DNA of 64,000 nucleotides from a virus (IMGVR_UViG_2654587728_000014:1-64000), one strand, 5' to 3'. Numbered from the stretch's first letter, positions 1 through 60,943 are shown. Translations and numbers: made by a program. The notes: generated from the letters alone by a model not told the origin.

Positions 1-1110
1 TCACGCTGTTTCTGCTATCCATTCCGGGATTTTTGCCTCAAGCTCAAGCTGCGTGGTAAAGCCGCTGTTATCAATGGTGTGCTCGGCTTTTGCAATAATC
101 CAGTCCTGATTATCAATCTCGCTTTTAAATCCTGTTACCGTGCCATGCATTTCGGGGTAGAGTTCTGCACGTCCACGCGCCAGCGTGATGGAAAATGATG
201 CGGCTCCGCGTTGTAGCTGCTGCCACTTTGCCGCCGCTGCGCGTCTTGCTGCCTGCTCGTTCTGATAAGTCTTGCGTAACACAAACACATTGCCTTCCGC
301 GCCTTCCATATAATCACCTTCACGGCTGCTGCTTTTCTCCTTTTTGGGTTTTGGCGGTTTGCGGCGTTTCACGCTGACTTTTTTCTTTTTCCCGTAATTA
401 AGATCAAGCCAGTAAGCGCGTACCCCCGTATACGCCTCGCGGTCAGCAATGCGGAACTGATGGCGATCGCCGCTGCTGCGTGTGATGGCGAACGATGGCA
501 ACGGCTGGCCCTGTGCGTTCACGCCACCACCTGGCATGATGAATAACAGATTGCCGCTTTTTACCGTGGTGATTGCGCCCAGCATTTCCGCCATGCGCGT
601 AAGGAAGGACATATCGCTTTCTTCGGTCTGGTCGGCGTGGTCGATTTCGATATCCATCAGCATTTCGCTGATTTGCGGTTTCAGACCATACCGATGAGCG
701 ATGGCGGATACCACACGCTCAACGGTCACATCATGCCAGGACACCTCACGTTTAACGTTAAATTCATCCCGAAAATCTGCGCTTCTGGCTGAAACAGTCA
801 GCCTGTCCGGCGGTCCTTCGTGAGCGATTTCATCAACAATGTAAGTGCCTTTTTCTGTCAGCGGTTCTCCTTTCCAGCCAATGAGAACCGTCAGGCGCGC
901 GCCCCGTGGCGGTAGCTGCAACTGACCATCCGCATCATCCAGCGTGATGGTGAGCTGGTCCGCGTCAAATCCCCGGTTGTCGGTCAGTGACAGGCTCATC
1001 AGGCGCTCTGCCACGCCTGACAGCGTTTTACCCTCCGCGAGAATATCAAAATCCGGCATTTTCACGGGGTCTGTGCCCTGACTGAGCAATTGCATGGTGG
1101 TATCGGTCAT
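1..1110 (-). CDS. D: P2-like tail protein gpD (late control D family)
   Basis: ORF track 1..1242; likely start ATG 1108-1110 after GGAGGG RBS; MTDTTMQLLSQG... resembles gpD; window starts at its stop codon. Confidence 0.88.
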   Translation of the reverse strand: MTDTTMQLLSQGTDPVKMPDFDILAEGKTLSGVAERLMSLSLTDNRGFDADQLTITLDDADGQLQLPPRGARLTVLIGWKGEPLTEKGTYIVDEIAHEGPPDRLTVSARSADFRDEFNVKREVSWHDVTVERVVSAIAHRYGLKPQISEMLMDIEIDHADQTEESDMSFLTRMAEMLGAITTVKSGNLLFIMPGGGVNAQGQPLPSFAITRSSGDRHQFRIADREAYTGVRAYWLDLNYGKKKKVSVKRRKPPKPKKEKSSSREGDYMEGAEGNVFVLRKTYQNEQAARRAAAAKWQQLQRGAASFSITLARGRAELYPEMHGTVTGFKSEIDNQDWIIAKAEHTIDNSGFTTQLELEAKIPEWIAETA

Positions 1111-1267
1111 CTGTTCCCTCCCTGTGCGGCATGGTCGCATGTGCGTGCGGAGGGGGTTACTGCTTTTTGTTGTCGCCGGATCGGGAGAACGGCACAGGGG
1201 TGAGATTACGCGCGTGGTGGGTGATGATTGTTGCCGAATCATTTAACGGATACAAGGGGCTAAAGCT

Positions 1268-2452
1268 ATGAGTGAAACTCGTTTTCATGGTGCCCGTGTT
1301 ACGGAAAATACCGACCTGGTAACAGCGATTAACGATGTTGATTCCAGCGTTATCGGTATCGTGGCAACGGCGGATGATGCGGACGCGAAGCTGTTCCCGC
1401 TGAACAAGCCCACACTGCTGACCCGCGTCAATGACGTGCTGGGAAAATGCGGGACAACGGGGACGCTTTATCGTGCGCTTAAGGCCATCGCAGACCAGGT
1501 GAGCACAAAGGTGATCGTCGTTCGCGTGGCTGAACACAAAGAAGAAGACGGAAAGACGCAGGATCAACTGGTTATCGGTGGTTCTGAATCTGACGGCAGC
1601 TATACGGGGATGTATGCGCTGCTTGTTGCAGAGCAGGATGAAAGCATCGGATACCGTCCGCGTATTCTGGCCGCGCCGGAGCTGGACACGGAGGCGGTGA
1701 CAAAATCCCTGTGCGTGATTGCGGGTAAACTGCGCGCGTTTGTGTATGCCTCATGTCACGGCTGTAACACGATGGCTGAGGTGATTACCTACCGCCAGAA
1801 ATTCAACGAACGTGAGGTGATGCTCTTATGGCCGGACTTCATCGCCTACAACCCGAAAAGTGGCAAAAACGAAACGTTCCCCGCGCCTGCCTATGCGTGC
1901 GGCCTTCGTGCGTACATTGACCATGAGCAGGGATGGCACAAATCACTGTCCAACGTTCCGGTTAAAAATGTGCTGGGGATGTCCAGGCATGTGTTCTGGT
2001 CGTTGCAGGCCGAAGACAGCGATGCCAACAGCCTCAACAACAAAGAAATCACGACCATTATTCGTCGCAACGGGTTCCGCTTCTGGGGCAACCGCACACC
2101 GGAAACGAACGCCTACATCTTTGAGGTGTATACCCGAACCGCACAGGTGCTGGCTGATTCAATTGCGGAAGCGCAGTTTGAAACCATCGACAGTCCACTG
2201 ACGCCTGCGAACGTGAAAGATGTTATCAGTGCCATCAGGGCAAAACTGGATTCACTGGTTACTGCCGGGAAACTGATTGGGGCGTCGTGCTGGTATGACG
2301 TGGTGGATAACGGCACCACGAATTTACGTCAGGGGCGTGTGCGTATTCGCTACAAATATACGCCTGTTCCCCCGCTGGAAGACATGGAGCTTTACCAGTC
2401 GTTTACTGATGAATTCTTTGGTCCCGCATTTGCGGTGCTGGGAGGTGCCTGA
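1268..2452 (+). CDS. FI: P2-like contractile tail sheath protein
   Basis: 394 aa; conserved sheath blocks (FPLNKP, LRAF.Y, WPDF, GWHK.LSNV, RRNGFRFWGNRT, YTPVPPLE) as in P2 FI. Confidence 0.92.
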   Translation: MSETRFHGARVTENTDLVTAINDVDSSVIGIVATADDADAKLFPLNKPTLLTRVNDVLGKCGTTGTLYRALKAIADQVSTKVIVVRVAEHKEEDGKTQDQLVIGGSESDGSYTGMYALLVAEQDESIGYRPRILAAPELDTEAVTKSLCVIAGKLRAFVYASCHGCNTMAEVITYRQKFNEREVMLLWPDFIAYNPKSGKNETFPAPAYACGLRAYIDHEQGWHKSLSNVPVKNVLGMSRHVFWSLQAEDSDANSLNNKEITTIIRRNGFRFWGNRTPETNAYIFEVYTRTAQVLADSIAEAQFETIDSPLTPANVKDVISAIRAKLDSLVTAGKLIGASCWYDVVDNGTTNLRQGRVRIRYKYTPVPPLEDMELYQSFTDEFFGPAFAVLGGA

Positions 2453-2964
2453 TGGCTGTACCAAAACATCTTCGCTTTTTTACGCTGTTTGTGGATGGTG
2501 AAAACGAAGTGGGTAAGGTGACGTCCGTCACTCTGCCTAAGCTGACGCGCAAAACCGACAGCTACCGGGGTGGTGGCATGATGGGTGCGGTAAGTATTGA
2601 TCTCGGTCTGGACGACTCCGCGCTTGATGCGAGCTTTGTCATGGGGGGCGCAGTTCGTGAGCTGTTCCTTAAGTATGGCGGCACGATTGACGGCACGCTG
2701 CTGCGTTTTGCGGGTGAATACTACACCGATGCAGAAAGCGATCTGTATGAAATCGAGATGCGCGGACGTGTGACGGAAATTGATATGGGGGAAGCCAAAC
2801 AGGGCGAAGCCACATCACACACTTACGCCATTAAAAACACCTACTACAAGCTGAGTGTTAACGATCGCCCGTTGTGGGAGATTGACCTGCTGAACTTCAT
2901 TTACCGGAAGGACGGCAAGGACATTGTGCCCGATCGCATCCGTTCCGCGCTTGGGCTTGGCTGA
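2452..2964 (+). CDS. FII: P2-like tail tube protein
   Basis: 170 aa directly after sheath gene with ATGA overlap; tube-like sequence. Confidence 0.88.
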   Translation: MAVPKHLRFFTLFVDGENEVGKVTSVTLPKLTRKTDSYRGGGMMGAVSIDLGLDDSALDASFVMGGAVRELFLKYGGTIDGTLLRFAGEYYTDAESDLYEIEMRGRVTEIDMGEAKQGEATSHTYAIKNTYYKLSVNDRPLWEIDLLNFIYRKDGKDIVPDRIRSALGLG

Positions 2965-3018
2965 TAAGTAATATGCAGGCGGCGCAGTGCGCCGCCTCTG
3001 ACTGAAAGGAGTTTCCTG

Positions 3019-3384
3019 ATGAAAGAGACGAAAAACATCGATACCGAAAACACGGTAGTTGCTGACACTGTGAAAGAAACCAGTGAGCGTGGCGTAAAAC
3101 TTACCCAACCAATTGAGCGAGGCGGCGAAAAAATCACGTATGTGGAGATCACCGGGGCTATTGAGCAGGCTGGATCTCTGCGAGATTTGTCGCTGTCTGA
3201 TGTGCTGAATCTGAAAGCGGAATCCATGTTTACGCTGCTGTCACGCGTGACATCACCGCGACTGGATGAAGTGACGATCAAAAAAATGGCATCCCGTGAC
3301 TTTATTCAGTTATGTGTGGTTGCCGTAAATTTTTTGAGCGGTGCGGACTCTGGCGGGAAGAACGAACAGGCGACGGAAGCCTGA
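3019..3384 (+). CDS. E: tail assembly chaperone gpE
   Basis: 121 aa ORF between tube and tape-measure genes; ends ...NFLSGADSGGKNEQATEA. Confidence 0.8.
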   Translation: MKETKNIDTENTVVADTVKETSERGVKLTQPIERGGEKITYVEITGAIEQAGSLRDLSLSDVLNLKAESMFTLLSRVTSPRLDEVTIKKMASRDFIQLCVVAVNFLSGADSGGKNEQATEA

Positions 3385-3548
3385 TCACGGTTGTGTGCTT
3401 TGAGCACATAGAAGACTTTGTGGCAGATATTGCCGTTATTTTTAACTGGTCGCCCGCCGAAATCTTCATGATGACGCCCGGCGAAGTGGTTAGCTGGCGT
3501 GAGCGGGCGGCACTTCGCAGCGGGAATGCAGACAATGAAGACTCTTGA
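3019..3548 (+). CDS. E': gpE+E' extended chaperone made by programmed -1 frameshift at TTTTTTG (3330-3336)
   Basis: slippery heptamer TTTTTTG inside E; the -1 frame continues as ORF 3312..3548 (FFERCGLWREER...NEDS). Confidence 0.65.
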
Positions 3549-4905
3549 TATCCGGGTCGCTTTCAGCGCCGTTGACAGGCTGACCCGACCTGCAGAAAAC
3601 GCACGCCGCCTGATGGGGCAGTTTGGTGACTCCATCCAGCGAACGCAGGGGGCGATCAAAAATCTCGAGCGTCAGGCGCGTTCATTTGAGCGCGCCCGCG
3701 ACGCTGTCAGTAAAGCGGATGCGGGTATCGTGAAAGCACGACGCCAGCTTAACGCCCTTAATCAGTTACAACGCACGGGTACAGTGCTCAGCGAAAAACA
3801 ACAAAAGCTGATGCAGCAGTTAAGCACCCGGCTTGAACGCCTGAATGAATCGCGCACACGGGAGATTCAGAAAATGCGGGAGCTTGGCGGAGAGCTGAAA
3901 CGCCACGGCATTTCCCTGACAGGCAGCGATAACACCATCCAGCAGGCCATCAGACGCACCGAACAGTACAACAACCAGCTTGAACGCGAACGGCAGGCGC
4001 TTGCGCGTGTAACGCGGGCGCGTGAGCGGTATTCGCGCGCGCAGGAAACCGCGGGAAAACTGAAAACAGGTGGTGCACTGGCAACAGGTGCGGCAGCGGC
4101 GGGCGGCTATGCTGCCGGGCGTTTTTTGCAGCCCGCGATTGGGTTCGGGAAAGAGATGTCCCGCGTTCAGGCACTGACGCGAATCGACAAAAACAGCCCA
4201 CAGTTTAAGGCGCTGCGTGAGCAGGCGTTAAAACTTGGCTCTGAAACGCAGTTCACCGCTGGAGATGCCGCCAGTGGACAGGCATTTCTTGCAATGGCTG
4301 GTTTTACTCCGCAGGCCATTCAGGCTGCGTTTCCCGGCGTGCTGAGCATGGCAACGGCTGGCGGTATGGATCTCGGCGAGACGGCGGATATTGGCTCAAA
4401 TATCCTGACGCAGTTCGGCCTCTCTGCTGACCAGATGGACCGGGTTGGCGACACGCTTACAGCGGCGTTTACCCGTACCAACACTGACCTTCGCGCGCTG
4501 GGCGAAACCATGAAATATGCAGGTCCGGTGGCGGGTAAGCTGGGAATATCGCTGGAGCAGGCCGCTGCGATGGCGGGCGTGCTGGCGAATATGGGCATCA
4601 GAGGGAGTGATGCCGGGACGGCAATGCGTGCCAGCCTGGCTCGTCTGGCATCACCGCCAAAGGCGGCAGCAGAGGCGCTGAAAGAGCTGGGTGTGGCTGT
4701 CTCTGACGCGAACGGCAAAATGCGCCCGATGGAGGATGTACTGGCCGACCTTTATAAAGCCACCCGCAAATACGGGGAAGTTGACCGGGTATCGTTCTTT
4801 AAGGACATTGCCGGAGAAGAGGCTTTCACATCGTTTATGGCGCTCGTTGATGCAGCGGGTGACGTGATGCGCCGCGCGATAAATGCACTCTATCTTGTGC
4901 GATAA
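3526..4905 (+). pseudogene. T: P2-like tape measure protein gpT, N-terminal part; native sequence ends about 4864 where a Mu-like end begins
   Basis: ORF 3499..4905 with coiled-coil tape-measure character; last 13 codons (VMRRAINALYLVR) are read from the inserted element. Confidence 0.8.
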
Positions 4906-4940
4906 ATGGCATCCACGCGGCGTTTCATTATTTGAAAAAG
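4865..4940 (+). repeat. Mu-like right-end terminal repeat region (putative transposase-binding sites)
   Basis: TGAT-N9-GATAAATG terminal motif, repeated GCGATAAATG(C/G)CA, then GTTTCATTATTTGAAAAAG; same motif at 10682. Confidence 0.55.
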
Positions 4941-4942
4941 AA

Positions 4943-5515
4943 TTACATTTCAGGTTGCGTTATGACAGTCCCAACAGGGTGATAGCGGTAGATCGTTGAC
5001 AGTCCAATATCATAGATAATTGCCAGCCGCTTTCTGTCATACCCTTTCTGGAGCAATCTTGCGATCTGCTCATGCTGCTCCTTCGTCAGTTTCGGGCGAC
5101 GTCCTCCAACTCTTCCTTGTGCTCGCGCAGCAGCCAGTCCAGCCAGCGTGCGCTCAACTATCAGTTCACGCTCCATTTCTGCCAGTGCACCCATCATATG
5201 AAAAAAGAACCTTCCCATCGGAGTGCTGGTATCGATTGAATCCGTCAGACTGCGAAAATTGACACCTTTTGCGCGTAGCTCTTCTGTGAGAGCAATGAGG
5301 TGTTTCATTCTTCTACCCAACCGATCCAGCTTCCAGACCACCAATGTATCCCCTCTTTTAAGGCACTTTAAAGCGCGTTTCAGGCCTGGTCGTTCCGACT
5401 TGGTTCCGCTCATTTTGTCCTCAAAAATCTGTTCACATCCTGCGCACATTAATGCATTGCGTTGCAAATCTGTGTTTTGGTCATTTGTTGACACACGTAT
5501 GTAGCCAATCAGCAT
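4943..5515 (-). CDS. gin: Gin/Hin/Pin-family serine DNA invertase (invertase 1)
   Basis: 190 aa MLIGYIRVSTNDQNTDLQRNAL...; catalytic Ser motif and C-terminal HTH; AAGGGAG RBS; ORF track 4943..5644 has an upstream non-native extension. Confidence 0.93.
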   Translation of the reverse strand: MLIGYIRVSTNDQNTDLQRNALMCAGCEQIFEDKMSGTKSERPGLKRALKCLKRGDTLVVWKLDRLGRRMKHLIALTEELRAKGVNFRSLTDSIDTSTPMGRFFFHMMGALAEMERELIVERTLAGLAAARAQGRVGGRRPKLTKEQHEQIARLLQKGYDRKRLAIIYDIGLSTIYRYHPVGTVITQPEM

Positions 5516-5569
5516 TAAAAATACTCCCTTTTGAGTGGTTAAAGTACTGAGATAATGTGGGGAGGATTT

Positions 5570-5597
5570 GAGAGATAAACGTTGGTTTGGGAGAAGG
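5570..5597. other. gix-like crossover site A (GAGATAAACGTTGGTTTGGGAGAAGG)
   Basis: matches gix/hix/cix consensus core AAACC-NN-GGTTT; inverted relative to site B at 7984-8011. Confidence 0.6.
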
Positions 5598-6048
5598 TTC
5601 GGCATTACCCGTTGGTGTGCCTGTTCCGTGGCCTTCAGCCACACCGCCTACTGGCTGGCTGAAATGCAACGGTGCGGCTTTTTCTGCTGAAGAATACCCG
5701 GAACTGGCAAAGGTTTATCCGACAAATAAATTGCCGGATTTACGCGGTGAATTTATTCGTGGCTGGGATGACGGACGTGGTGTGGATGCCGGGCGACAAT
5801 TATTATCTTCACAGGGGGATGCAATAAGAAATATTGAGGGATTCGCAGATGGCGGGATCGGTATGTCTTTTGATGCAATCAGAGGGGCTTTTTATGATGC
5901 AGGAACACGATCTGCGAGAATGCCGAATAACACAACTGATATAGGCAAAACCGATGACCTTGGATTCGACGCCTCTCGTGTCGTGCCAACAGCTAATGAA
6001 AACCGTCCACGTAACATCGCCTTTAATTATATTGTGAGGGCTGCATAA
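5587..6048 (+). CDS. tail-fibre variable C-terminal cassette (Sv type), no constant N-terminal part attached in this isomer
   Basis: starts at crossover site with GEGSALPVGVPVPWPSATPPTGWLKCNG, ends ...AFNYIVRAA; homologous to C-termini of S (43887..45341) and H (45962..47611). Confidence 0.75.
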   Translation: MGEGSALPVGVPVPWPSATPPTGWLKCNGAAFSAEEYPELAKVYPTNKLPDLRGEFIRGWDDGRGVDAGRQLLSSQGDAIRNIEGFADGGIGMSFDAIRGAFYDAGTRSARMPNNTTDIGKTDDLGFDASRVVPTANENRPRNIAFNYIVRAA

Positions 6049-6641
6049 TGAAACCTGTTTTTGATGAAAATGGGCTGGCTACAGTGCCGGGTGATATGCG
6101 TTGTTATTATTATGATGCAGTAACGTCTGAATATACGGGCTGGTCTGATGAATATATTAATACTGGCGTAAGTATGCCCGTTTGTTCCACTGGTATTGAC
6201 CCGGGCGAATACATTCCGGGAAGAGTGGCAGTATTTACGGGTAAGGGATGGAGCCATGAAGAAGACCATCGCAATGAGACCGTTTACTCAACTGAAAATG
6301 GCGCAGCTGTTACAGTGGATTATATCGGTGCCATCAAAGACGGTTATGTCACGCTTTCACCGTTAACGCCATACGATAAATGGGATGGTGAGAAATGGGT
6401 GACGGATACCGAGGCACAGCATAGCGCCGCAGTAGAAGCTGCAGAAGCACAGCGCCAGTCGCTGATTGATGCTGCAATGGCTTCCATCAGTCTGATTCAA
6501 CTGAAATTACAGGCCGGGCGGAAGCTGACGCAGCCAGAAAACACCCGACTTAACGCTGTGCTGGATTATATTGACGCGGTGACGGCAACAGATACCAGCA
6601 CAGCGCCGGACGTCATCTGGCCTGAACTGCCGGAGGCGTAG
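6048..6641 (+). CDS. tail fibre assembly protein (Mu U / P2 G family)
   Basis: 197 aa directly after Sv cassette; same family as 45348..45962. Confidence 0.85.
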   Translation: MKPVFDENGLATVPGDMRCYYYDAVTSEYTGWSDEYINTGVSMPVCSTGIDPGEYIPGRVAVFTGKGWSHEEDHRNETVYSTENGAAVTVDYIGAIKDGYVTLSPLTPYDKWDGEKWVTDTEAQHSAAVEAAEAQRQSLIDAAMASISLIQLKLQAGRKLTQPENTRLNAVLDYIDAVTATDTSTAPDVIWPELPEA

Positions 6642-7056
6642 GCCATTCAATATCTGGCGCACCGGAAGTATCGACCAGTTCCAGTGCGTCCAGATAATCC
6701 AGCCACAAATTATATTGCGCCAGTTCCTCACCTTTCAGGCGACCAATCGCCGCTTTACCAGGCCATTGCTTACTGTATATGTATTCGTTGACCTGATTAA
6801 TCAATTGCTGCTTTTCCAGTTCGGCTGCAGCAATTTGTTCCTCATGAGTTGGCGGTGGAATTTCCCCCCAGGTGGGAAGGCCATCATCACCCGCGATGCG
6901 TACTTTCCCTTGCAACGTTCTGTCTTCAATAAATTCCAGGTAAGTGTCATATGTCACTTCGACAACATCAGCAAGTTCCCATCCGGCCTGTTCATATTTC
7001 GCCACATCATTTTTAGCGAAAAAACTATTTTTTGAGGCGCTATAAACCATTTCCAT
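6613..7056 (-). CDS. tail fibre assembly protein (U' type, opposite arm of cassette)
   Basis: 147 aa; conserved ...WPTPPAVQAR end typical of U/G chaperones. Confidence 0.8.
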   Translation of the reverse strand: MEMVYSASKNSFFAKNDVAKYEQAGWELADVVEVTYDTYLEFIEDRTLQGKVRIAGDDGLPTWGEIPPPTHEEQIAAAELEKQQLINQVNEYIYSKQWPGKAAIGRLKGEELAQYNLWLDYLDALELVDTSGAPDIEWPTPPAVQAR

Positions 7057-7057
7057 A

Positions 7058-7531
7058 TTAATACCCTACTGCAATATAAAAAACTGATTCACCAGCGTCC
7101 TGAGAACCTACCCCCGGAACGCCAGACCAGGTTTTGTTAATGAATGCAAAACTGGTATTACTCAGATCAGATGCTCTGTACATCGGGCTGAACATCCAGT
7201 AGTTGGCTCCATATGTTTGTCCGAAAACAATGCCATAGCACTGATTTGTAAATGGCGTAGAAAATAATTTTCCACCAGTACCAGCGATAGTCCCGAATCG
7301 CATCTGGAACCCATTCGGGAAATTAATTCCGCCTGCCGGTGAAGACCAGTAAGACATATCAGGTATTTGCCCAGCACTATTTCCCACGTTTTTTGTTGCA
7401 ACGGTTCCTAACCCAAGATTAGCTCTTGCGTCAGATTTATTTGTTAACTCATAAAGATTATTTGCCTTTTGAAGTGCTCCTATTATGCGTAAATCATCAC
7501 CAGCGGCAACGGTTCCGACTGTCGTGCCCAC
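7058..7531 (-). CDS. tail-fibre-associated protein (extra ORF in cassette)
   Basis: 157 aa, Gly/Asn/Ser-rich with NLGLG motif like fibre distal tips; sits between Sv' and U'. Confidence 0.5.
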   Translation of the reverse strand: MGTTVGTVAAGDDLRIIGALQKANNLYELTNKSDARANLGLGTVATKNVGNSAGQIPDMSYWSSPAGGINFPNGFQMRFGTIAGTGGKLFSTPFTNQCYGIVFGQTYGANYWMFSPMYRASDLSNTSFAFINKTWSGVPGVGSQDAGESVFYIAVGY

Positions 7532-7565
7532 ATCCCTTTTCGCCGCTTCTCCTAAACCAACGTTT

Positions 7566-8072
7566 CTATGCCGCCCTTACGATGTAATTAAACGCAATGT
7601 TACGGGGACGAATGGTCACATAATTAACCCCATCGCCTCGCGAAGGACCTGCAAATGAAAAACGGGAGAATCCAGGTTGGTTGTCAAGGATTTGGTCATA
7701 GTTATTGATTGAATGACCAGACCCAATGTCAAAATTACCTGCGTAATGAGAAAAACTTGTACCATCCTGCCGTGAAAGCAGATCGCGCCCTGTATCCACT
7801 TTTCGCCCGTCGTCCCATCCACGGATAAACTCACCGCGCAAATCGGGAAGACGGAGGGTCGGGTAGACTCTGGCCAGAACAGGATATTGTTCTTTTGTAA
7901 AGGCGCGCCCGTCGCACTTTAACCAGCCTGCTGGCGGTGTGGCAGTGGGCCACGGAACAGGTACACCAACGGGCAGCGCCGAGCCTTCCCCCAAACCAAC
8001 GTTTTCGTTTTTATCCCTACCTATACCAACTCTGTATTTTTCACGAAACAAAGAGGATGTTTTTTTATGCAA
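7566..8072 (-). CDS. tail-fibre variable C-terminal cassette (Sv' type), promoterless in this isomer
   Basis: LGEGSALPVGVPVPWPTATPPAGWLKCDGRAFTKEQYPVLARVYPTLRLPDLRGEFIRGWDDGRKVDTGR nearly identical to the H segment at 46275-46465. Confidence 0.8.
   Translation of the reverse strand: MHKKTSSLFREKYRVGIGRDKNENVGLGEGSALPVGVPVPWPTATPPAGWLKCDGRAFTKEQYPVLARVYPTLRLPDLRGEFIRGWDDGRKVDTGRDLLSRQDGTSFSHYAGNFDIGSGHSINNYDQILDNQPGFSRFSFAGPSRGDGVNYVTIRPRNIAFNYIVRAA
7984..8011. other. gix-like crossover site B (CCTTCCCCCAAACCAACGTTTTCGTT)
   Basis: about 21/26 identical to reverse complement of site A; lies just upstream of invertase 2. Confidence 0.6.
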
Positions 8073-8666
8073 ATTGGCTATATTCGTGTGTCAACAAATG
8101 ACCAGAACACGGATTTACAACGCAATGCACTGAACTGCGCAGGATGTGAACTGATTTTTGAAGATAAAATCAGCGGAACGAAATCAGCCAGACCGGGATT
8201 GAAAAAACTGCTCAGAACGCTATCAGAAGGAGATACGCTGGTTGTCTGGAAGCTGGACAGACTGGGCAGAAGTATGAAACACCTGATCACGCTTATTGAG
8301 GAATTGCGGGAAAAAGGTGTTAATTTCCGTAGTCTGACGGACAGCATTGACACATCAACACCCATGGGGCGTTTCTTTTTTCACGTCATGGGGGCTTTAG
8401 CCGAAATGGAACGTGAATTAATTGTAGAGCGTACACTGGCCGGGCTGGCAGCAGCACGCGCACAAGGACGCATTGGCGGACGTCGCCCGAAGTTGACAAA
8501 AGAACAACACGAGCAAATAGCGAGGCTGATTAAAAACGGTCATGACAGGAAACAACTGGCGATCATTTACGACATCGGCATATCGACGATTTATCGTTAT
8601 CACCCTGTAGGCGATATACAGGCTGAAGAAACAACCAGGCAGACTCAGGAAAATAAAAACCGCTAA
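8067..8666 (+). CDS. Gin/Hin/Pin-family serine DNA invertase (invertase 2)
   Basis: 199 aa MQIGYIRVSTNDQNTDLQRNAL...; paralog of invertase 1 in inverted orientation. Confidence 0.93.
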   Translation: MQIGYIRVSTNDQNTDLQRNALNCAGCELIFEDKISGTKSARPGLKKLLRTLSEGDTLVVWKLDRLGRSMKHLITLIEELREKGVNFRSLTDSIDTSTPMGRFFFHVMGALAEMERELIVERTLAGLAAARAQGRIGGRRPKLTKEQHEQIARLIKNGHDRKQLAIIYDIGISTIYRYHPVGDIQAEETTRQTQENKNR

Positions 8667-8686
8667 TCTGACCATTAGCGGTTTTG
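8659..8686 (+). terminator. rho-independent terminator of invertase 2
   Basis: hairpin ACCGCTAAT-CTGACC-ATTAGCGGT followed by TTTTG. Confidence 0.6.
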
Positions 8687-8692
8687 CGTTAA

Positions 8693-9187
8693 TCAAAACA
8701 GCCCTTTAACGGAGCTGGCCGCGCTGTTAAGGGATGATGTGACCTTATCTTTGAAGCCGGACAGCATATCACTGAACGATGAGGATTGCAGGCGCTCCCG
8801 CAAATCCTCATCACAGCGTTCAAGAGTCAGTGAAAATTCTATCTTTTTCGCCTTACCGTAGCGATCAAACTCGGAACGGGTCGTATTCGTTTCAGTCAGT
8901 ACATACATGCCGTAAATCTGCCCGACACCATCAATCAGAGGCCAGGGGCGTCCTGTATATGCCTGCGTGGTCAGCAACGAAAGCGACACTTCGCCACCTG
9001 TAATTTCAGGATAAAGCACGCCGGAAAGCACGATGCGATCATCACCTGCGCCGATATACTGCCAGCTTGCTGAACGGTTAACGCGTTCATTTTTCACATG
9101 CCGCCAGCTTTTGTTTTGCTGTAACTGCTGATGCGGCAATGTGCGCAGCTCAAAAACAAACATGCCGTAGATCATCATCATGGCCAT
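8693..9187 (-). CDS. U: P2-like tail protein gpU
   Basis: 164 aa MAMMMIYGMFVFELRTLP...; gpU family; D is not downstream as it would be in P2. Confidence 0.88.
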   Translation of the reverse strand: MAMMMIYGMFVFELRTLPHQQLQQNKSWRHVKNERVNRSASWQYIGAGDDRIVLSGVLYPEITGGEVSLSLLTTQAYTGRPWPLIDGVGQIYGMYVLTETNTTRSEFDRYGKAKKIEFSLTLERCDEDLRERLQSSSFSDMLSGFKDKVTSSLNSAASSVKGLF

Positions 9188-9193
9188 GACTCC

Positions 9194-10681
9194 TCAATCT
9201 TTATCGTAAAAACTGCCACGCCCGGCACGGGCGCGCCGTTCCATTTCTGCCCTGACCATTTCGCCAATCAGTTTCGCCAGTTCGCGGGGATTCTGTGTAA
9301 CAACGTTATGCAGATGAACATGAATTTCACCGCCAAATCCGGAGGCAACAGGCTCCCGGTTACGGGAAGTTGCAGGAACTGATGCCACTGGCGATCGTAT
9401 AGCCTCCGCCACCGGGCGGGAGCTGGCCGCAACAACAGGGACCAGCGCCGGAGGCAGCGGAGCCGGAACCACGGGTGTGATAGTAATTGCGGGGGCAGGC
9501 TTACTGACCTGCGCAATCTTCCGCTCCTGCCACTCCCCACGAACAGCAAGTGCGCGGGGCAGGTTCTTAAAGACAATATCGCCGGGGCCAATGCGTTTTT
9601 TCGTCTCATCAACCAGCTTACCTGTGTTATCAGCAATTTTGCTGAGTCTGCGTAGCGTACCGGTATTGTTGTCTGTGAGCGGTTTGTTGTCTCTGGGTTT
9701 ATCGCCTTTTTTGTCGTCGACCTTATCTGACGGGGCCGGGCCGGGAGTCCATGGTTTCTGAACCATTTTCTTGAGAACCGGATCCCATTCCCACATTACA
9801 GGAGCCTTTGAAGCGTTCTCTATTTTCTTTCTCGCCCGTTCCGCTTCATCCGGAAGCACTCCGAGCTTTTCAAGTATCCACGCCAGTGAATCCATCAATG
9901 CTTTTGTTGGCGTCAGGACAAGCTCTATCGCTCCACCGAGTACCCTGCCGAATACCTCGCCAGCACTGGTACATTTATCCAGCGTTTCCTTGCTGGACTC
10001 CATCGGTGACAGCAGCGATTTAAACCAGTTAAAGACCTGAATAATCCCATCGCGCACGACATCAAAAACTGGACCGAACCGTTCAAAGGTTTCGCGCAAC
10101 GGAGCCAGCCGTTCCATAATCCCACTGAACACCCCTGCATAAAACGCCTTGATGGGTTCCCAGTATTTCCAGATGAGAACCGCCGCAGCCACAAACGCAG
10201 CAGCAATCAATCCGACCGGGCTGAACAGCGCCCCGATAGCGCCCCCCAGTAACGAAACGGAACCCGTCACCATTCCCCATAGTGCTGGCAGGAGCCTGAC
10301 AGCATTCATTGATCCGGTCAGGAGGGAAAAGCCAAGACGCAGTTTTGCCAGCGGGCCAGCAAGCACACCAATAGCCAACGACAACGAGCCGACCGTTGCA
10401 GTCATCGCCAGCAATGCCCCACCTGCAATCAGTAGCTGGCGCGTCAGTGCCGGATGGGCCTGCGCCAGCGCCGTCACCTTTGATACCACCCGCGTGAGCC
10501 ACTGCGTGACAGAACGCAGCGGACCGTCAATCAGATCTGCAATGCGGATGCGCAACCCTTCCCATGCACTGCCGAGTGATTTCAGATCGCCGTCAAGGTT
10601 GTTGGCCATAACCTTTGCTGTGCGTTCAGCCTCACCGCGCGCGCCTTCAAGTTCTTTTCTCAGTTTGGGTAAGGAGCCGTC
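9194..10681 (-). pseudogene. T: P2-like tape measure protein gpT, C-terminal part (upstream boundary is the Mu-like end at about 10681)
   Basis: ORF 9194..10609 (471 aa) with Gly/Ala-rich hydrophobic tape-measure segment; frame open only to an in-frame stop at 10658-10660. Confidence 0.78.
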
Positions 10682-10845
<164 letters not shown>

Positions 10846-20014: not shown

Positions 20015-20778
20015 CAGAAGTTGCAGATTAGCAGTTCACGGCGCGGCGTGGGTTTACCCGCCAGACTGTAGTTGATATTCACTGTCTGTATGTTCAGTCC
20101 AGTGAACACCTCGCGCATCTGCGGGATGTCGTTCACCGAAATTATCATTTTTCCTCTGATGCACCGGGCCAGCTCTGCCAGCCGCGAGTAGTTCCCTTCA
20201 GGAAAATCCACACCATAGCCTTCCGTACCCAGGTACGGTGGGTCGCAGTAGAACAGCGTGTGCGGACGATCATAACGCTCAATGCACTGTTGCCAGTCCA
20301 TGTGTTCTATGACTGTTCTGGAAAGCCGCAGGTGTGCCGCTGACAGTTCTTCTTCAATACGTAGCAGGTTGAAGCGTGGCGGGGATGTGGTGGAGGTACC
20401 GAAGCTGTGCTCTGCCACCTTGCCGCCAAACGCCTGCTTCTGAAGGTAGTAGAACCGTGCCGCACGCTGGATATCCGTCAGTGTTTCTTCCGGGGTGATC
20501 TGCAGCCATTTGTAGATCTGACGGCTGACCAGCGCCCATTTGAACTGGCGGACAAATTCTTCCAGGTGATGCTTTACCACCCGGTACAGATTCACCAGTT
20601 CACCGTTGATATCATTGATGACTTCGATCTTGCCGGGTGTCTTAAGAAAATAGAGCGCTGCTGCCCCACAAAACGGCTCCACATAACATTCATGCGCCGG
20701 AAACAGCGGCAGAATGTGTTTTGCAAGGCGGCGTTTGCCACCAATCCACGGCACGATGGGTAATGTCTGCATTTTCAT
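20014..20778 (-). CDS. dam: DNA adenine methyltransferase (Dam-like, orphan)
   Basis: about 254 aa; IVPWIGGKRRLAKHILPLFP... and DPPY motif (FYCDPPYLGTEGYG). Confidence 0.85.
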   Translation of the reverse strand: MKMQTLPIVPWIGGKRRLAKHILPLFPAHECYVEPFCGAAALYFLKTPGKIEVINDINGELVNLYRVVKHHLEEFVRQFKWALVSRQIYKWLQITPEETLTDIQRAARFYYLQKQAFGGKVAEHSFGTSTTSPPRFNLLRIEEELSAAHLRLSRTVIEHMDWQQCIERYDRPHTLFYCDPPYLGTEGYGVDFPEGNYSRLAELARCIRGKMIISVNDIPQMREVFTGLNIQTVNINYSLAGKPTPRRELLICNF

Positions 20779-43319: not shown

Positions 43320-43890
43320 GCCATTACAACTCCCGCCACCGCTTGAGGGTGATATCAGTCTCAGGACGCTGGGAAGACTGGCAGGACGGCTGGATAACAT
43401 CGACCTGAGCGTACTGATGGTCTTTCTCGTCGATATCGTCGACAGTTCCGCGCTGCCATGGCTGGGCGAGCAGTTCTCACTGTCTGGCGATGGCTGGGAG
43501 CTGGCGGAATCGGACGATGTTCGCCGCATGCTTATAAAAGCAGCCATCGAACTGCACCGGTATAAAGGGACGCCGTGGTCAATCCGGGAAGTTATCCGCC
43601 GTTTTGGCTTTGGTGAAGTGGATCTGATTGAAGGCACAGGTCGTCTCAGTTACGACGGCAATCGCAGCTATAACGGACTGTTTGTTCATGGAGATGCAGC
43701 CGCCTGGGCAGTTTATCGCGTTATTCTGAAACAGCCCATTACTAACGATCAGGCCGCGATGCTGCGTCAGACGCTCGCTGCATTTGCACCGGCCCGCTGC
43801 CATCTGGCCAGCCTGGAGTATCAGTCTGTGGCCATTCGCTATAACAATACCGCCATCCATGATGGCAGTTATAACCACGGGAGCAGTTGA
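43312..43890 (+). CDS. tail protein I family
   Basis: 192 aa before tail-fibre gene. Confidence 0.78.
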   Translation: MTEPLQLPPPLEGDISLRTLGRLAGRLDNIDLSVLMVFLVDIVDSSALPWLGEQFSLSGDGWELAESDDVRRMLIKAAIELHRYKGTPWSIREVIRRFGFGEVDLIEGTGRLSYDGNRSYNGLFVHGDAAAWAVYRVILKQPITNDQAAMLRQTLAAFAPARCHLASLEYQSVAIRYNNTAIHDGSYNHGSS

Positions 43891-45341
43891 TTATGGGAAA
43901 CCTGAATGAAACAGAAAAGTGGGAAGAAAATATCTATCAACTGGAGACATCAGATCCGGTTCTGGGTGGTGCAGACGGGATATCAAATCGAGCCCCCCGG
44001 CAACTGGCAAACAGGACGAAATGGCTGAAGAAAAAAACGGAGGAAGCCGCACAGTCACTGGCTGAACACGTACGTTCCCGTAACCACCCGGACGCGACAC
44101 TGACAGCTAAGGGGTTCACCCAACTGAGCAGTGCCACCAACAGCACCTCTGAAACGCTGGCCGCCACACCAAAGGCCGTCAAGGCTGCATATGACCTGGC
44201 TGCCGGCAAGGCCCCCGTCAGCCATACTCACCCGTGGAGTCAGATAACGGGAGTGCCTGCTGCCTCGCTGACGGCAAAAGGCACCGTACAACTGAGCAGC
44301 GCCACGGACAGTCAATCAGAAACTGAGGCTGCCACGCCGAAGGCGGTCAAGGCTGCATACGACCTTGCAGCCGGCAAGGCGCCCGTCAGCCACACTCACC
44401 CGTGGAGTCAGATAACGGGAGTGCCTGCTGCCTCGCTGACGGCAAAAGGCACCGTACAACTGAGCAGCGCCACGGACAGTCAATCAGAAACTGAGGCTGC
44501 CACGCCGAAGGCGGTCAAGGCTGCATACGACCTTGCAGCCGGCAAGGCGCCCGTCAGCCACACTCACCCGTGGAGTCAGATAACGGGAGTGCCTGCTGCC
44601 TCGCTGACGGCAAAAGGCACCGTACAATTGAGCAGTGCCATCAACAGCACGTCTGAAATACTGGCCGCCACACCGAAAGCGGTCAAGGCTGCATACGATC
44701 TGGCAAACGGAAAACAACCGGCAGATGCCACGCTCACTGCTCTGGCAGGACTTGCCACTGCAGCAGATCGGTTGCCTTATTTTACCGGAGCAGACCGCGC
44801 AGAGCTGGCAACCCTTACAGCTATTGGTCGCGCTATTATCGCTAAGGGCAGTATAAAAGATGTCCTCAATTACCTTGGTTTGGGGGAAGGCTCTGCATTG
44901 CCTGTTGGTGTACCGGTTCCATGGCCCACCGCCACACCGCCAGCAGGCTGGTTACAGTGCAACGGAGCTACGTTCACCAAAGAACAATATCCTGTTCTGG
45001 CCAGAGTCTACCCGACCCTCCGTCTTCCCGATTTGCGCGGTGAGTTTATCCGTGGATGGGACGGTGGTCGCAAGGTTGATACCGGGCGTGCGCTACTTTC
45101 ATTTCAGGAAGGGACTATCGTATCCGGTTTTGATGATAATGATACCGGAGATATCAGTTCGCTCGGCTCTACACAATACGGATTTGGTGACGCTTTAACC
45201 TCTAATCAACTGGGGGTCTTAAATGGCAAAAAGTGGATATTTGATGCATCCTCTAAAGGTGCACAAAGATATGACTGGTGGGCTTATGTATCAGCTCGCC
45301 CCCGCAATATCGCATTTAACTATATCGTGAGGGCGGCGTGA
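43887..45341 (+). CDS. tail fibre protein S of Mu-like element (constant part up to site C, then variable part)
   Basis: 484 aa; tandem shaft repeats; C-terminus LGLGEGSALPVGVPVPWP...NYIVRAA shared with H and the cassette ORFs. Confidence 0.9.
   Translation: MIMGNLNETEKWEENIYQLETSDPVLGGADGISNRAPRQLANRTKWLKKKTEEAAQSLAEHVRSRNHPDATLTAKGFTQLSSATNSTSETLAATPKAVKAAYDLAAGKAPVSHTHPWSQITGVPAASLTAKGTVQLSSATDSQSETEAATPKAVKAAYDLAAGKAPVSHTHPWSQITGVPAASLTAKGTVQLSSATDSQSETEAATPKAVKAAYDLAAGKAPVSHTHPWSQITGVPAASLTAKGTVQLSSAINSTSEILAATPKAVKAAYDLANGKQPADATLTALAGLATAADRLPYFTGADRAELATLTAIGRAIIAKGSIKDVLNYLGLGEGSALPVGVPVPWPTATPPAGWLQCNGATFTKEQYPVLARVYPTLRLPDLRGEFIRGWDGGRKVDTGRALLSFQEGTIVSGFDDNDTGDISSLGSTQYGFGDALTSNQLGVLNGKKWIFDASSKGAQRYDWWAYVSARPRNIAFNYIVRAA
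44099..44700 (+). repeat. tandem 168-bp coding repeats (about 3.5 copies; two perfect copies at 44267-44434 and 44435-44602)
   Basis: exact 168-nt periodicity encoding LTAKGTVQLSSATDSQSETEAATPKAVKAAYDLAAGKAPVSHTHPWSQITGVPAAS. Confidence 0.85.
44865..44891. other. gix-like crossover site C (CTCAATTACCTTGGTTTGGGGGAAGG)
   Basis: consensus core; same orientation as site A; at the constant/variable junction of S. Confidence 0.6.
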
Positions 45342-45347
45342 TACCGT

Positions 45348-45962
45348 TCAGCCGGCAAGCGCCAGTGGCGCTTCCGGCCAGCTGATTTCAGGTGCCTTGC
45401 TGATATCCAGTGCGTTCAGCTCGTCGATATAATCCAGCACGGCGTTCAGTTTTGCCGTTTCTTCTGGTTTCAGACTGCGACCAGCACGCAGTTTGAGGTT
45501 GATAAGATCGACGGACGCCATCGCCTGTTTCACCCGTTGCTGGCGTTGCTGTCTGGCAACCTCCAGTTCTGCGGCTCGCTGCCGTTCAGTATCGGTTACC
45601 CACGCCTCACCGTTCCAGGTATCCCATGGCGTGGCTGGCTGTTTTGTGGTGGTGTCCGCCGGGTAATCACCCGGTTGGGTAATCAGAACGGGGTTACCGT
45701 TCTCCGTGCTGTATACCGTCTCGCCGCGGTGATCAGGCACATGCTCCCACCCGTTCAGCGTGGCAGTCCGGCAAACCACGTAACCCGAAATTGCTTCCGG
45801 CGGTGCATCGGCGCACGAATGTGCCGGAGTACCCACCCCAAGGGCGAGATACTCCACAGAGGATGAGGTGTATTCCCGGGTTTCCTCGTCATAGTGATAT
45901 ACAGTGATATCGCCCGCTACAGTGGCGATACCGTTTTCATCCAGAACTGCAGTGTTACTCAT
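45348..45962 (-). CDS. G: tail fibre assembly protein (P2 G / Mu U family)
   Basis: 204 aa directly downstream of H; stop is 6 bp from the stop of S on the other strand. Confidence 0.85.
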   Translation of the reverse strand: MSNTAVLDENGIATVAGDITVYHYDEETREYTSSSVEYLALGVGTPAHSCADAPPEAISGYVVCRTATLNGWEHVPDHRGETVYSTENGNPVLITQPGDYPADTTTKQPATPWDTWNGEAWVTDTERQRAAELEVARQQRQQRVKQAMASVDLINLKLRAGRSLKPEETAKLNAVLDYIDELNALDISKAPEISWPEAPLALAG

Positions 45963-47611
45963 TAAACTGCCCTCACAATGTAATTAAGTGCAATGCTACG
46001 GGGTCTGACAGTGATACCCTTCGCATACCCGCTTCTGATAGAGGTCAGAATAGTAGCCTGCATACCATTGTCTGACATTGCCACGACAGGATCGCTGAAT
46101 GTTGTCCCGTCCGGCATTTTAAAGCTGCCCTCACGAAGGTCTGTAATGGAATCTTCATTGTTGAATCCCATGCCGACTATCCCCGAGGTTCCCGTAGTGT
46201 CCTGGTTATAATAATCCAGCATTGCTGTTCTTAACAGCGTTGCCCCTTGTGCGGACAGCAACTTACGTCCTGTATCAACTTTGCGCCCGTCGTCCCATCC
46301 ACGGATAAACTCACCGCGTAAATCGGGAAGACGGAGGGTCGGGTAGACTCTGGCCAGAACAGGATATTGTTCTTTTGTAAAGGCGCGCCCGTCGCACTTT
46401 AACCAGCCTGCTGGCGGTGTGGCGGTGGGCCACGGAACAGGCACACCAACGGGTAGCGCCGAGCCTTCTCCTAAACCAAGGTAATCAAGAACTCCCTGAG
46501 TGCTGGTTTTACCAAGAATGGCACGTCCAACACTTGTCAACGCGGTTAACGCGGCACGATCTGCCCCTGTAAAATATGGGAGTTTATCTGCTGATGTAGC
46601 AAGCTCCGCCAGCGCCGTCAGGGTGGCATCCTTCGGTTGCTTACCCGCAAGCGCGTTAGTCATGGTGGTCGCAAAATTCGGGTCATTGCCCAGCGCTGCA
46701 GCCAGTTCGTTCAGCGTGTTCAGTGCATCAGGTGACGAATCTACAAGTGCGGCAATCGCAGCCATAACGAAAGCCGTGCTTGCGATCTGGGCACTATTAG
46801 TCCCCTGTGGCGCTGTTGGTGTTGTTGGCGTTCCGGTCAGTGCCGGGCTGTTTAATGGTGCTTTCTTGTTCGTTTCATCCATTACCGCCTTAACAGCTTT
46901 TGGTGTCGCTGCCAGCGTTTCAGACGTGCTGTTCGTGGCGCTACTGAGCTGAACAATCCCTTTTTGTGTAGTGGTGGCGTTCTGGGCGGTATATTTCCCG
47001 TTAGCCAGGTCATATGCAGCCTTAACCGCTTTCGGTGTTGCGGCCAGTGTTTCTGATTCACTGTTAATTGCACTGCTTAACTGAGTAAAACCTTTTACGG
47101 TCAGCGAGGCGTCCGGGTGACGTCGTGACTGTTCGTGCTCTGATATTTTATCATCCACATATTTGCGGGTTGCCAGAACCACAGACGGGTCGATTTTCAG
47201 CGTGATGGCTTCGGTGTTCGTGACAACCAGAATCATGCGGATAGTCTGGGTGCGTCCACTGCCTTCCTGCAACTGCGGTTTGTACGTTTCCGGGCAGTTT
47301 GCCACCGCAATGAGTGCACCTTCATCATCATAAAGACCAATCTCACGGATCCAGAATCCTCCCTCGTTTTCAGGGATGATTTGCTCCGCAATAATCTGGC
47401 TCTGATTGTTAGGGTCAACACTCAGAAGATTCAGCGGTGCAATGCGTTTCTGGTTAATCAGTTTTGTTTGTGCAGGGTCTGGTGTTGGTAACACACCATT
47501 TGCATCACCAACGGCCATTTGCGTCAGATTCAGCTTACTGCCGAGCATCGTCGCGTTAGCCAGTCGTGCTGCGCCCTGATTAGTCAGAATGGCGTAGTAT
47601 TTCACTGTCAT
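45962..47611 (-). CDS. H: P2-like tail fibre protein
   Basis: 549 aa; N-terminus MTVKYYAILTNQGAARLANA...IAVANCPETYKPQLQEGSGR matches P2 H; C-terminal part after site D matches Mu-type Sv. Confidence 0.9.
   Translation of the reverse strand: MTVKYYAILTNQGAARLANATMLGSKLNLTQMAVGDANGVLPTPDPAQTKLINQKRIAPLNLLSVDPNNQSQIIAEQIIPENEGGFWIREIGLYDDEGALIAVANCPETYKPQLQEGSGRTQTIRMILVVTNTEAITLKIDPSVVLATRKYVDDKISEHEQSRRHPDASLTVKGFTQLSSAINSESETLAATPKAVKAAYDLANGKYTAQNATTTQKGIVQLSSATNSTSETLAATPKAVKAVMDETNKKAPLNSPALTGTPTTPTAPQGTNSAQIASTAFVMAAIAALVDSSPDALNTLNELAAALGNDPNFATTMTNALAGKQPKDATLTALAELATSADKLPYFTGADRAALTALTSVGRAILGKTSTQGVLDYLGLGEGSALPVGVPVPWPTATPPAGWLKCDGRAFTKEQYPVLARVYPTLRLPDLRGEFIRGWDDGRKVDTGRKLLSAQGATLLRTAMLDYYNQDTTGTSGIVGMGFNNEDSITDLREGSFKMPDGTTFSDPVVAMSDNGMQATILTSIRSGYAKGITVRPRSIALNYIVRAV
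46464..46491. other. gix-like crossover site D (CCTTCTCCTAAACCAAGGTAATCAAGAA)
   Basis: very good match to hix/gix consensus; same orientation as site B. Confidence 0.6.
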
Positions 47612-48249
47612 GCGTTTACTCTCAGATTATCAATTAAATGAATGGCCGGGGCAGGGAAATAATCCCCTTCGACAATAATGGACTCCGGGGTGTAGGGATA
47701 AACCGTCAGGGCATCGCCGTGATAGCATCCCGTACCAACGAAAATCTTTCCGTTCACACTCAGGCTGATCGCCAGCCCCGTCAGATGGCGACTTACTGGT
47801 TTTGCATCCGCAATAAGGCGCTCAAGTTCCTGATACATTTCATCGGTGATGCCCTGATCAAGTACTCCGACAACAATGCGAAATGTTCCTGGCTCCTCGT
47901 TGAGTTGCCACCACTCCTTTACTTCAATCAGGTAGCCGAGAGGCTCCACGGCTCTTCGCAGTGCGCTGATGGTCCCTTTGTGTCGGTGTATCAGCCATGC
48001 ATCACGAATTACCTGTCGCTTTGTCTCTTCCGGCCAGTTGCGATCCCAGCGGTCAACGGAAAACGCCCAGGCGAGATAAGGCAGCAGATGCACCGGGCAG
48101 GTGTCCGGCGACCACAGCGTGTTGAGGTCTACCGGAATGTCTGTAATGCGTGTTCCGACGGCTTCGGCACAACGCATGAAATTGCTGGCTGATGGTGGTA
48201 ACAGTGAATTACTCATTGCGTCCACCTTCGCTGATGGTGAATGACTCAC
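47608..48249 (-). CDS. I: P2-like tail protein gpI
   Basis: 213 aa; LLPYLAWAFSVDRWD and ERLIADAKPVSRHL blocks as in P2 I. Confidence 0.88.
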   Translation of the reverse strand: MSHSPSAKVDAMSNSLLPPSASNFMRCAEAVGTRITDIPVDLNTLWSPDTCPVHLLPYLAWAFSVDRWDRNWPEETKRQVIRDAWLIHRHKGTISALRRAVEPLGYLIEVKEWWQLNEEPGTFRIVVGVLDQGITDEMYQELERLIADAKPVSRHLTGLAISLSVNGKIFVGTGCYHGDALTVYPYTPESIIVEGDYFPAPAIHLIDNLRVNA

Positions 48250-49105: not shown

Positions 49106-49108
49106 GAT

Positions 49109-52383: not shown

Positions 52384-52385
52384 TG

Positions 52386-53089: not shown

Positions 53090-53182
53090 TCCTGAAAAAA
53101 ATCGGGCGGTGGGTGCGCGGTGTAAACGGTCACGGAGTCAAACCGGAACACCGCGCACGCCGCCCGCTGACGGGGTCAGTCG

Positions 53183-53983: not shown

Positions 53984-54028
53984 TTTTTCTCTCCGTTACA
54001 GGCGGGCATGATGCCCGCTGTGAGTTGA

Positions 54029-55081: not shown

Positions 55082-55104
55082 AAAAAATTTGCTCCTTTGT
55101 CTTA

Positions 55105-59986: not shown

Positions 59987-59993
59987 AAAAGTA

Positions 59994-60939: not shown

Positions 60940-60943
60940 TGGT

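Follow-up and report, generated by a model that had tools for sequence, protein, structure and literature searches.

The 64,000-nucleotide stretch of viral DNA analysed here (IMGVR_UViG_2654587728_000014:1-64000, hereafter the window) corresponds to positions 432-64431 of the draft whole-genome shotgun contig JHRJ01000008.1 in assembly GCA_001267345.1, an accession for which a literature search gave nothing. At positions 4943-8666 the window contains two intact Gin/Hin-type invertase genes, hin1 and hin2, that face outwards, with the tail-fibre tip modules Sv1+U, X+U' and Sv' between them. There is no constant fibre region between the two invertase genes, and none on either flank of the segment between the two outer crossover sites of this cassette, sites A and B. 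The left flank is a truncated tape-measure gene with a transposable-phage end, while the right flank consists of hin2, gpU and the remainder of that gene. The original prediction for this locus had described the invertases as outward-facing with no constant region on either side, and both statements hold by open reading frames (ORFs) and by comparison of the flanks. The ORFs that it listed are likewise all present where it placed them, with identities backed by Pfam, weakly so in the case of X.

The first invertase gene, hin1 (4943-5515, minus strand, within an ORF of 4943-5644), encodes a 190-aa Gin-type invertase of a Mu-like prophage and is identical over 573/573 positions to the gene in Escherichia coli strain 81009, a member of sequence type 131 (ST131). 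The second, hin2 (8067-8666, plus strand), encodes the 199-aa invertase of a P88-like prophage and matches the invertase gene of the P88-like prophage of DETEC-S589 at 598 of 600 positions. Both show full-length Resolvase (E ~1e-51) and HTH_7 (E ~1e-12) domains in Pfam as well as the YIRVSTNDQ motif with Ser10, and hin1 additionally matches the Mu Gin structures 3UJ3 and 4M6F over residues 1-181 (E ~1e-93). The two are 75% identical to each other, and neither gene is recombinant, as each matches its own parent at 99.7-100% from end to end. These are the invertases of two different prophages, one nested in the tape-measure gene of the other. Judging from the homology of the invertase genes, a Fis-dependent recombinational enhancer may lie in cis inside the invertase gene.

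Within the cassette, Sv1 (5584-6048, ORF 5587-6048, plus strand) is a fibre tip with a Collar domain and is of P88-like origin, the Sv1-U half (5598-6864) being 96.8% identical to the P88-like cassette of Ceylon31. It is paired with U (6048-6641, plus strand), a tail-fibre assembly protein (Pfam Caudo_TAP, E 4e-27). A second assembly protein, U' (6613-7056, minus strand; Caudo_TAP, E 4e-30), is paired with X (7058-7558, minus strand), a gp53-like tip module whose C-terminal match is weak and falls under the Pfam cutoff (E 0.007). The frame of X runs on to an internal crossover site, site I, and the GTG start at 7531 that gives the listed ORF of 7058-7531 is an artefact of ORF listing. Sv' (7566-7997, minus strand), the fibre tip of the Mu-like phage, also has a Collar domain and matches 81009 at 422 of 424 positions and phage PhiKM at 99.3%; the start listed at 8072 for its ORF (7566-8072) is spurious. 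No frameshift is found in any cassette module or in either invertase gene, so the block is intact. The motif ...RPRNIAFNYIVRAA is the shared terminus of Sv', Sv1 and two further tips of the Mu-like phage, Sv_a and Sv_b.

In order to judge whether these modules might be expressed as they stand, the frames entering them and the surrounding sequence were inspected. A TGA at 5569-5571 closes the frame upstream of Sv1, the stop codon of Sv' directly precedes site I, and a promoter and terminator consensus scan over 4850-8750, itself a weak scan, gave 5 promoter-like sites where 5.8 were expected, none of them upstream of Sv1 or Sv'. Because of these stops and a promoter signal no better than chance, the cassette is predicted to be one that cannot be expressed as a fibre in the window isomer, in agreement with the silence that had been proposed for it. 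Its description as a full Mu G-segment-like cassette survives for the modules and fails for the single segment. The block is a composite of two phages, in which 5584-7558 is assigned to the P88-like phage and 7561-7997 to the Mu-like phage, with a third crossover site dividing them.

The presence of two phages is explained by the flanks. To the left of hin1 lie D (minus strand), FI, FII, E and T-N of a P88-like prophage (Xuanwuvirus, P2 family), the window being 97.7% identical to P88 over 1-4864. T-N (3535-4864, plus strand) comprises the first 443 codons of the tape-measure gene T, cut by an insertion, and its ORF reads on into the phage end to a stop at 4905. The last six bases of T-N are GTGACG (4859-4864), the first copy of a target-site duplication, and are followed by the right end of a Bcepmuvirus-like (Mu-like) prophage (4865-4942, plus strand), which begins TGATGCG... 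and contains two GCGATAAATG motifs. On the other side of the cassette, gpU (8693-9187, minus strand; Phage_P2_GpU), a tail protein of the P88-like prophage, stands in the P88 order hin, U, T and is followed by T-C (9194-10683, minus strand), the C-terminal half of T, recognised by similarity to P88 and by the joined T ORF, lying in opposite orientation to T-N and carrying the second copy of the duplication at 10678-10683. The body of the Mu-like prophage then extends from its left end, TGATTAG..., through to the constant fibre region ScM (10684-44862).

Similarity to P88 T ends at 4864 and at 10683, and similarity to PhiKM and 81009 begins at 4865 and at 10684, so that both phage termini start with TGAT and each stands beside a GTGACG. 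When 3535-4864 is fused to the reverse complement of 9194-10677, so that a single 6-bp copy is left, the frame of T is restored as an unbroken 937-aa ORF, with 92.6% identity to P88 T and no difference from it across the junction; taking out 5 bp instead breaks the frame. At the level of sequence, the restored ORF, the TGAT ends and the flanking GTGACG copies show that a Bcepmuvirus-like phage transposed into T of a P88-like prophage with a 6-bp duplication, whereas Mu itself makes a 5-bp target duplication. An origin from two P88-like prophages with deletion of T-C and gpU was ruled out, because 6 bp are duplicated and the T ORF is restored exactly. Since the halves of T now point towards one another and the phage termini share the plus strand, an inversion after the insertion must have broken once inside the Mu-like phage and once beyond T-C. 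Once the insert and the inversions are undone, window positions 1-4864, 8073-10683 and 47773-64000 align to P88 at 87-98% and in the P88 order, namely H, G, the inverted cassette, the invertase, then U-T-E-FII-FI on the opposite strand, then D.

The Mu-like prophage is 99.0-99.6% identical to Escherichia phage PhiKM, a Bcepmuvirus, from 10684 to ~45007. It carries the genes of a transposable prophage (a transposase with an rve domain, an AAA ATPase, Gam, GemA and Mor) in the order Mor, GemA, Gam, B and transposase on the minus strand, followed by lysis, head and tail genes on the plus strand and then ScM. Positions 4865-5583 are identical (719/719) to the right end and invertase of the 81009 prophage, which there adjoins aroA. 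Of 5,426 complete E. coli genomes, ~600 contain the right end and invertase together (4865-5600) at an identity of at least 99%, and ST131 strains are numerous among them. Across genomes the matches to the end start at ~4861-4865 with a different host gene beside each, as a transposable phage would be expected to show; the loci include gcd, ompF, ascB, ecpC and the neighbourhood of aroA. This prophage is a very successful and recently active transposable phage.

Two further observations concern the relatives used for comparison. The PhiKM record (PQ738613.1) seems to be circularly permuted; at 20098-20740 its fibre gene runs through a crossover site into Sv', followed by 343 bp without a match in the window and then by the left end. 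An ORF at 20200-20544 that overlaps the unmatched 343 bp is annotated as 'Fe2+ ABC transporter permease', and the record seems to be without its invertase and right end, probably owing to an assembly break in the invertible region. In P88-type phages (P88 26977-34433 compared with window 1-10683), the FI-FII-E-T-U block lies between the invertase and D, opposite to the remaining late genes, whereas in P2 all these late genes point in one direction. From its place beside the invertase, it seems that an invertase turned this block round long ago at a secondary site and that the inversion has become fixed in the genus.

The live fibre genes are found at the far end of the Mu-like prophage, at a second segment between crossover sites C and D. 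Live fibre gene 1 (43887-45341, plus strand), identified by Pfam and junction comparison, joins the Mu-like constant region ScM to the tip Sv_a, and live fibre gene 2 (45962-47611, minus strand) joins a P88-like constant region (the gpH N-terminus) to the Mu-like tip Sv_b. The latter is an inter-phage chimera whose exact protein is found only in this contig. Between them lies tfa_b (45348-45962, minus strand, by Pfam), the only assembly-protein gene of the Mu-like cassette. The segment Sv_a-tfa_b-Sv_b (44891-46463) is identical to 81009 at 1572 of 1573 positions, and both live constant regions carry Mu-like phage tips in the window isomer. Segment C-D has a constant region on both sides, so its inversion changes the expressed C-terminus, but segment A-B does not. 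The native Mu-like invertible region has three tips (Sv', Sv_a and Sv_b) and one assembly-protein gene, tfa_b, co-oriented with Sv_b, so that Sv' and Sv_a lack a chaperone in their own orientation. ScM contains, at 44121-44705, a 168-bp tandem repeat in 3.5 copies of 91% identity that encodes Phage_fiber_2 repeats, and overlapping alignments suggest that the copy number differs between the window phage and PhiKM.

The motif AAACGTTGGTTTGGGAGAAG occurs three times in the cassette, at 5577 (plus), 7546 (minus) and 7985 (minus), with 0 occurrences expected by chance and none in 100 shuffles. Therefore the cassette contains three crossover sites rather than two, with the copy at 7546 internal. In the whole window there are five imperfectly palindromic 26-bp sites of the form ...AAACG/TTACC-TT-GGTTTRGGRGAAG, which we take to resemble hixL/gix (TTCNNNNAAACCAAGGTTT...), with polarities +, -, -, + and -. 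All were oriented from constant region to tip and compared with native relatives. Site A (5570-5595, plus, central TT at 5582-5583) joins the Mu-like hin1-side half to Sv1, the latter with the P88-like constant-side half. Site I (7547-7572, minus, centre 7559-7560) joins the 3' end of the Mu-like Sv' to the P88-like X side, and site B (7986-8011, minus, centre 7998-7999) joins the P88-like hin2 side to the Mu-like Sv'. Site C (44863-44888, plus, central TT at 44875-44876) joins ScM to Sv_a, and site D (46466-46491, minus, centre 46478-46479) joins gpH to Sv_b.

Native arrangements of both parents exist in other genomes. The native Mu-like phage in 81009 has three sites, at which the hin1 side is joined to Sv', the Sv' 3' end to Sv_a, and ScM to Sv_b (followed by tfa_b), in the order hin, site, Sv', site, Sv_a, tfa_b, Sv_b, site, ScM. 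Two sites are present in native P88-like prophages; Ceylon31 has gpH joined to Sv1 and the hin side to X, and DETEC-S589 shows the alternative pairing, with an X-type module on the constant region. Alternative orientations thus occur among relatives, the partner of ScM being Sv_b in 81009, Sv' in PhiKM and Sv_a in the window. Measured against these parents, all five sites of the window are recombinant, as the sequence to the left of the central TT comes from one parental site and the sequence from GGTTT onward from another.

These hybrid junctions lead to the central result of this analysis. The cassette is very probably the leftover of site-specific recombination between the tail-fibre inversion switches of two nested prophages. 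The recombinant outcome can be read from the junctions themselves; that an invertase was the agent, we infer from the known properties of Gin and Hin. Several points weigh against this explanation. The closest match to U'-X (98.9%) is in a different prophage type, in strain ML775, so the assignment of this pair to the P88-like phage is by position alone. Either invertase may have been responsible, inversion may or may not be ongoing in the source strain, and a requirement for Fis and an enhancer and efficient inversion over 37-41 kb would be expected from what holds for Hin/Gin systems in general. Finally, the second data set used below to confirm the junctions (SRR21136863) may be the same strain re-sequenced, and would then be independent as data and perhaps not as biology.

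Tracing U'-X by identity to a P88-like cassette did not succeed, as the alleles of Ceylon31, DETEC-S589 and FAM21845 are only ~67% alike or unmatched. In E. coli O103 ML775 (4641-7100), the U'-X relative sits in a prophage cassette with a Mu-like baseplate (ymfQ, gp46, gp47) and adjoins a truncated invertase pseudogene, a case that shows how widely tip and chaperone modules travel between prophage families.

As the source is a draft contig and invertible regions are classic sites of assembly error, an isomer mixture or repeats might have led the assembler to join paths that were never together on one molecule. Against this, the contigs of a second data set, built with a second assembler (Logan, SRR21136863), contain at 100% identity the junction of T-N with the right end along with junction A, and the junction of T-C with the left end along with hin2 and junction B. 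These contigs run on for 123 bp after site A and 85 bp after site B and leave the cassette unspanned, which is a point in favour of an artefact. However, the exact repeats at the sites are short (~26 bp) and their flanks merely 72-96% alike, and the rule of legitimate recombination, by which a head (constant region or dead end) is joined to a tail (tip), holds at 5/5 junctions. In addition, the hin1-side half with Sv1 and the hin2-side half with Sv' need inter-phage exchange under any global path. An assembly artefact is for these reasons very unlikely. One SRR21136863 contig of 36,342 bp is almost exactly the segment between sites B and C, and the pattern of contig breaks at the sites could be a cheap signature for entangled inversion systems in short-read assemblies.

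The position of the exchange points also bears on how the junctions arose. RecA-dependent homologous recombination between the 5' parts of the Sv modules or between the invertase genes, with no invertase action, would have some substrate here, as the Sv modules share 70-130 bp of 72-96% similarity just past the sites, the two hin genes are related at the level given above, and a 70-bp repeat has been described at such switch points in ST131 (bioRxiv 10.1101/2022.05.07.487787). Homologous exchange needs similarity on both sides, however, and should scatter along the similar stretch. Instead, the change of parent at every one of the five junctions falls no more than ~15 bp from the central TT, right at the border of the similar stretch, and upstream of the switch the partners share no similarity. 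A switch at the TT with dissimilar sequence upstream argues for conservative site-specific exchange and against homologous recombination, and the hin genes, with their full-length parental identity, show no exchange of their own. Homologous recombination as the sole route to these junctions is accordingly a highly improbable account.

On this account the window arose as follows. The Bcepmuvirus-like phage first entered T of the P88-like prophage with the 6-bp duplication, and each phage brought a Gin/Hin-family invertase and its 26-bp sites at the boundary of constant and variable regions, three from the Mu-like phage and two from the P88-like phage. Because the sites share the half-site GGTTTRGGRGAAG and the central TT, any site should be open to pairing with any other of opposite polarity by either invertase. 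The hybrid junctions require two or more inversions in which a site of one phage recombined with a site of the other. One of these, of ~37-41 kb, turned round the Mu-like body along with hin2, gpU and T-C, which explains why the halves of T face each other, and the other was a 2.4-kb flip of segment A-B. A single large inversion (hin side with hin side, or constant side with constant side) was ruled out, as all five junctions are recombinant. As a result, the three dead-end site halves (two on the invertase sides and one after the Sv' stop) now hold Sv1+U, X+U' and Sv', forming the silent block, and ScM-Sv_a and gpH-Sv_b with tfa_b face each other across the remaining Mu-like segment.

In order to determine which arrangements can be reached from this one, segment ends were classed as heads or tails, inversion was allowed only between sites of opposite polarity, and all isomers were enumerated by breadth-first search. 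From the five sites 64 isomers are reachable, and among them each of the two constant regions meets each of the five tips, 20 pairings altogether. The window isomer is 2 inversions from the nearest native-type isomer (a first of ~41 kb, followed by the 2.4-kb flip of A-B), 4 from the 81009/DETEC-type and 1 from restored collinearity. In the model, inversions A×I and A×B would leave the block silent, and C×D would exchange Sv_a and Sv_b between the live fibre genes. Inverted orientation of the Mu-like ends would be regained through any one of three inversions, namely B×C (36.9 kb), I×C (37.3 kb) and A×D (40.9 kb). After B×C, ScM-Sv' would be expressed from a contiguous Mu-like prophage whose invertible segment carries Sv', X+U' and Sv1+U, whereas I×C would fuse ScM to X+U' and leave Sv1+U alone captured in the invertible segment.

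The original prediction had seen the cassette as a reservoir awaiting exchange with the S/H fibre locus. That exchange has already occurred, as the five recombinant junctions attest, and a single B×C or I×C inversion would join the cassette to the Mu-like constant region. Comparison with related genomes finds the same modules on constant regions elsewhere, Sv1 on the P88-like one in Ceylon31 and Sv' on ScM in PhiKM. As an effect, then, the reservoir stands, but nothing points to an evolved purpose. The arrangement is found only in the assembly of this strain and in one other read set. The junction between T and the phage end is absent from 5,426 complete E. coli genomes and from 100,044 GTDB species-representative genomes, and only the source contig and SRR21136863 carry it. 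Three junction-dependent products that were looked up (gpH-Sv_b, the Sv' ORF read from the hin2 side, and ScM-Sv_a) all occur only in the source contig. For junction A, the best full-length match in E. coli genomes is 93.7%, a value to be read in light of the conservation of Sv 5' regions between alleles.

That the two-invertase cassette is a conserved, selected store of spare host-range modules is scarcely credible and the least likely of the alternatives, for although the block is intact, free of frameshifts and re-attachable by one inversion, its junction and products have the restricted occurrence just described, its components are 99.5-100% identical to those of separate prophages elsewhere, and the disrupted tape-measure gene is a cost. 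The same identity to separate prophages indicates that the arrangement is recent. We found no evidence of a dedicated reservoir design, and the arrangement is best described as an accident of prophage nesting and of cross-compatibility between invertases.

The locus shares several features with the Mu G/Gin, P1 C/Cin and e14 P/Pin systems, including a serine invertase of ~190 aa beside an invertible segment, sites at the constant/variable boundary of a fibre gene, and alternative tip and chaperone modules on opposite strands with the invertase-side half silent. In each of them a single invertase serves two sites and a single constant region, whereas the window has two invertases, five sites and two phages, with one segment lacking a constant region. 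The classical analogue with many sites is the Min multiple-inversion system of plasmid p15B, which has six crossover sites (Iida, Sandmeier and Arber, 1990-92). A P2-like prophage of enteropathogenic E. coli (EPEC) has a three-repeat switch with four variants (PMC4272514), and the Mu-like phage alone is a three-site system of this kind. Like the window, the p15B and EPEC systems have more than two compatible sites, nested inversions, many isomers and several fibre C-termini. Both, however, belong to one element with one constant region, whereas here the sites of two unrelated phages are united, and inversions reach across a 34-kb phage body and turn round half of the tape-measure gene of the other phage.

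Action of an invertase on another prophage has been described for PinQ of Qin, which inverts the e14 P segment (PMC12529663). In that case the enzyme alone acts in trans and the sites of two prophages are not recombined together, unlike here. A further precedent is found in ST131 wound isolates, where inversion and 'translocation' of fibre segments were reported among P88-like and phiE255/BcepMu-like prophages (bioRxiv 10.1101/2022.05.07.487787). The two phage types are the same, with compatible invertases and sites, and the sites and mechanism were left unresolved in that preprint, whereas here both parents, the five hybrid sites and a minimal inversion path are resolved and the prophages are nested. 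The R64 shufflon (Rci) likewise shuffles C-terminal segments onto one constant region by inversion at many sites, but it uses a tyrosine recombinase and unrelated sites and acts on pilV rather than on a phage fibre, and the window locus is not a member of that family. What is new is the resolved composite, with two invertases, five sites that are all hybrid, nested prophages, a P2-type fibre with a Mu-like tip and a segment stripped of its constant region.

Tail-fibre tips decide which bacteria are open to attack by a phage or tailocin, and they are mosaic across unrelated phages, with the movement of modules mostly inferred by sequence comparison. Here the exchange of modules between a Mu-like and a P2-like phage, very probably by an invertase, is caught in the act, because the parents can be identified at 99.5-100% and every exchange point lies at a site core. 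The P2-type fibre here carries the tip and chaperone of the Mu-like phage. There is also a cost to polylysogeny, as compatible switches scramble both prophages and ~37-41 kb are flipped. For annotation, the locus is a warning that what might be taken for decay (split tape-measure genes, paired invertases or 'orphan' fibre cassettes) can be an isomer of entangled prophages.

Finally, as the Mu-like prophage looks otherwise intact by ORF lengths and by its 99.0-99.6% identity to PhiKM, an assessment made overall, a restored Mu-like prophage could package the P88-derived modules and release them in infectious particles of new receptor specificity. We suggest, tentatively and at less than even odds, that a nested pair of this kind may act as a natural device that moves host-range modules, by site-specific rather than homologous recombination, between phage families, here the Peduoviridae and Bcepmuvirus.

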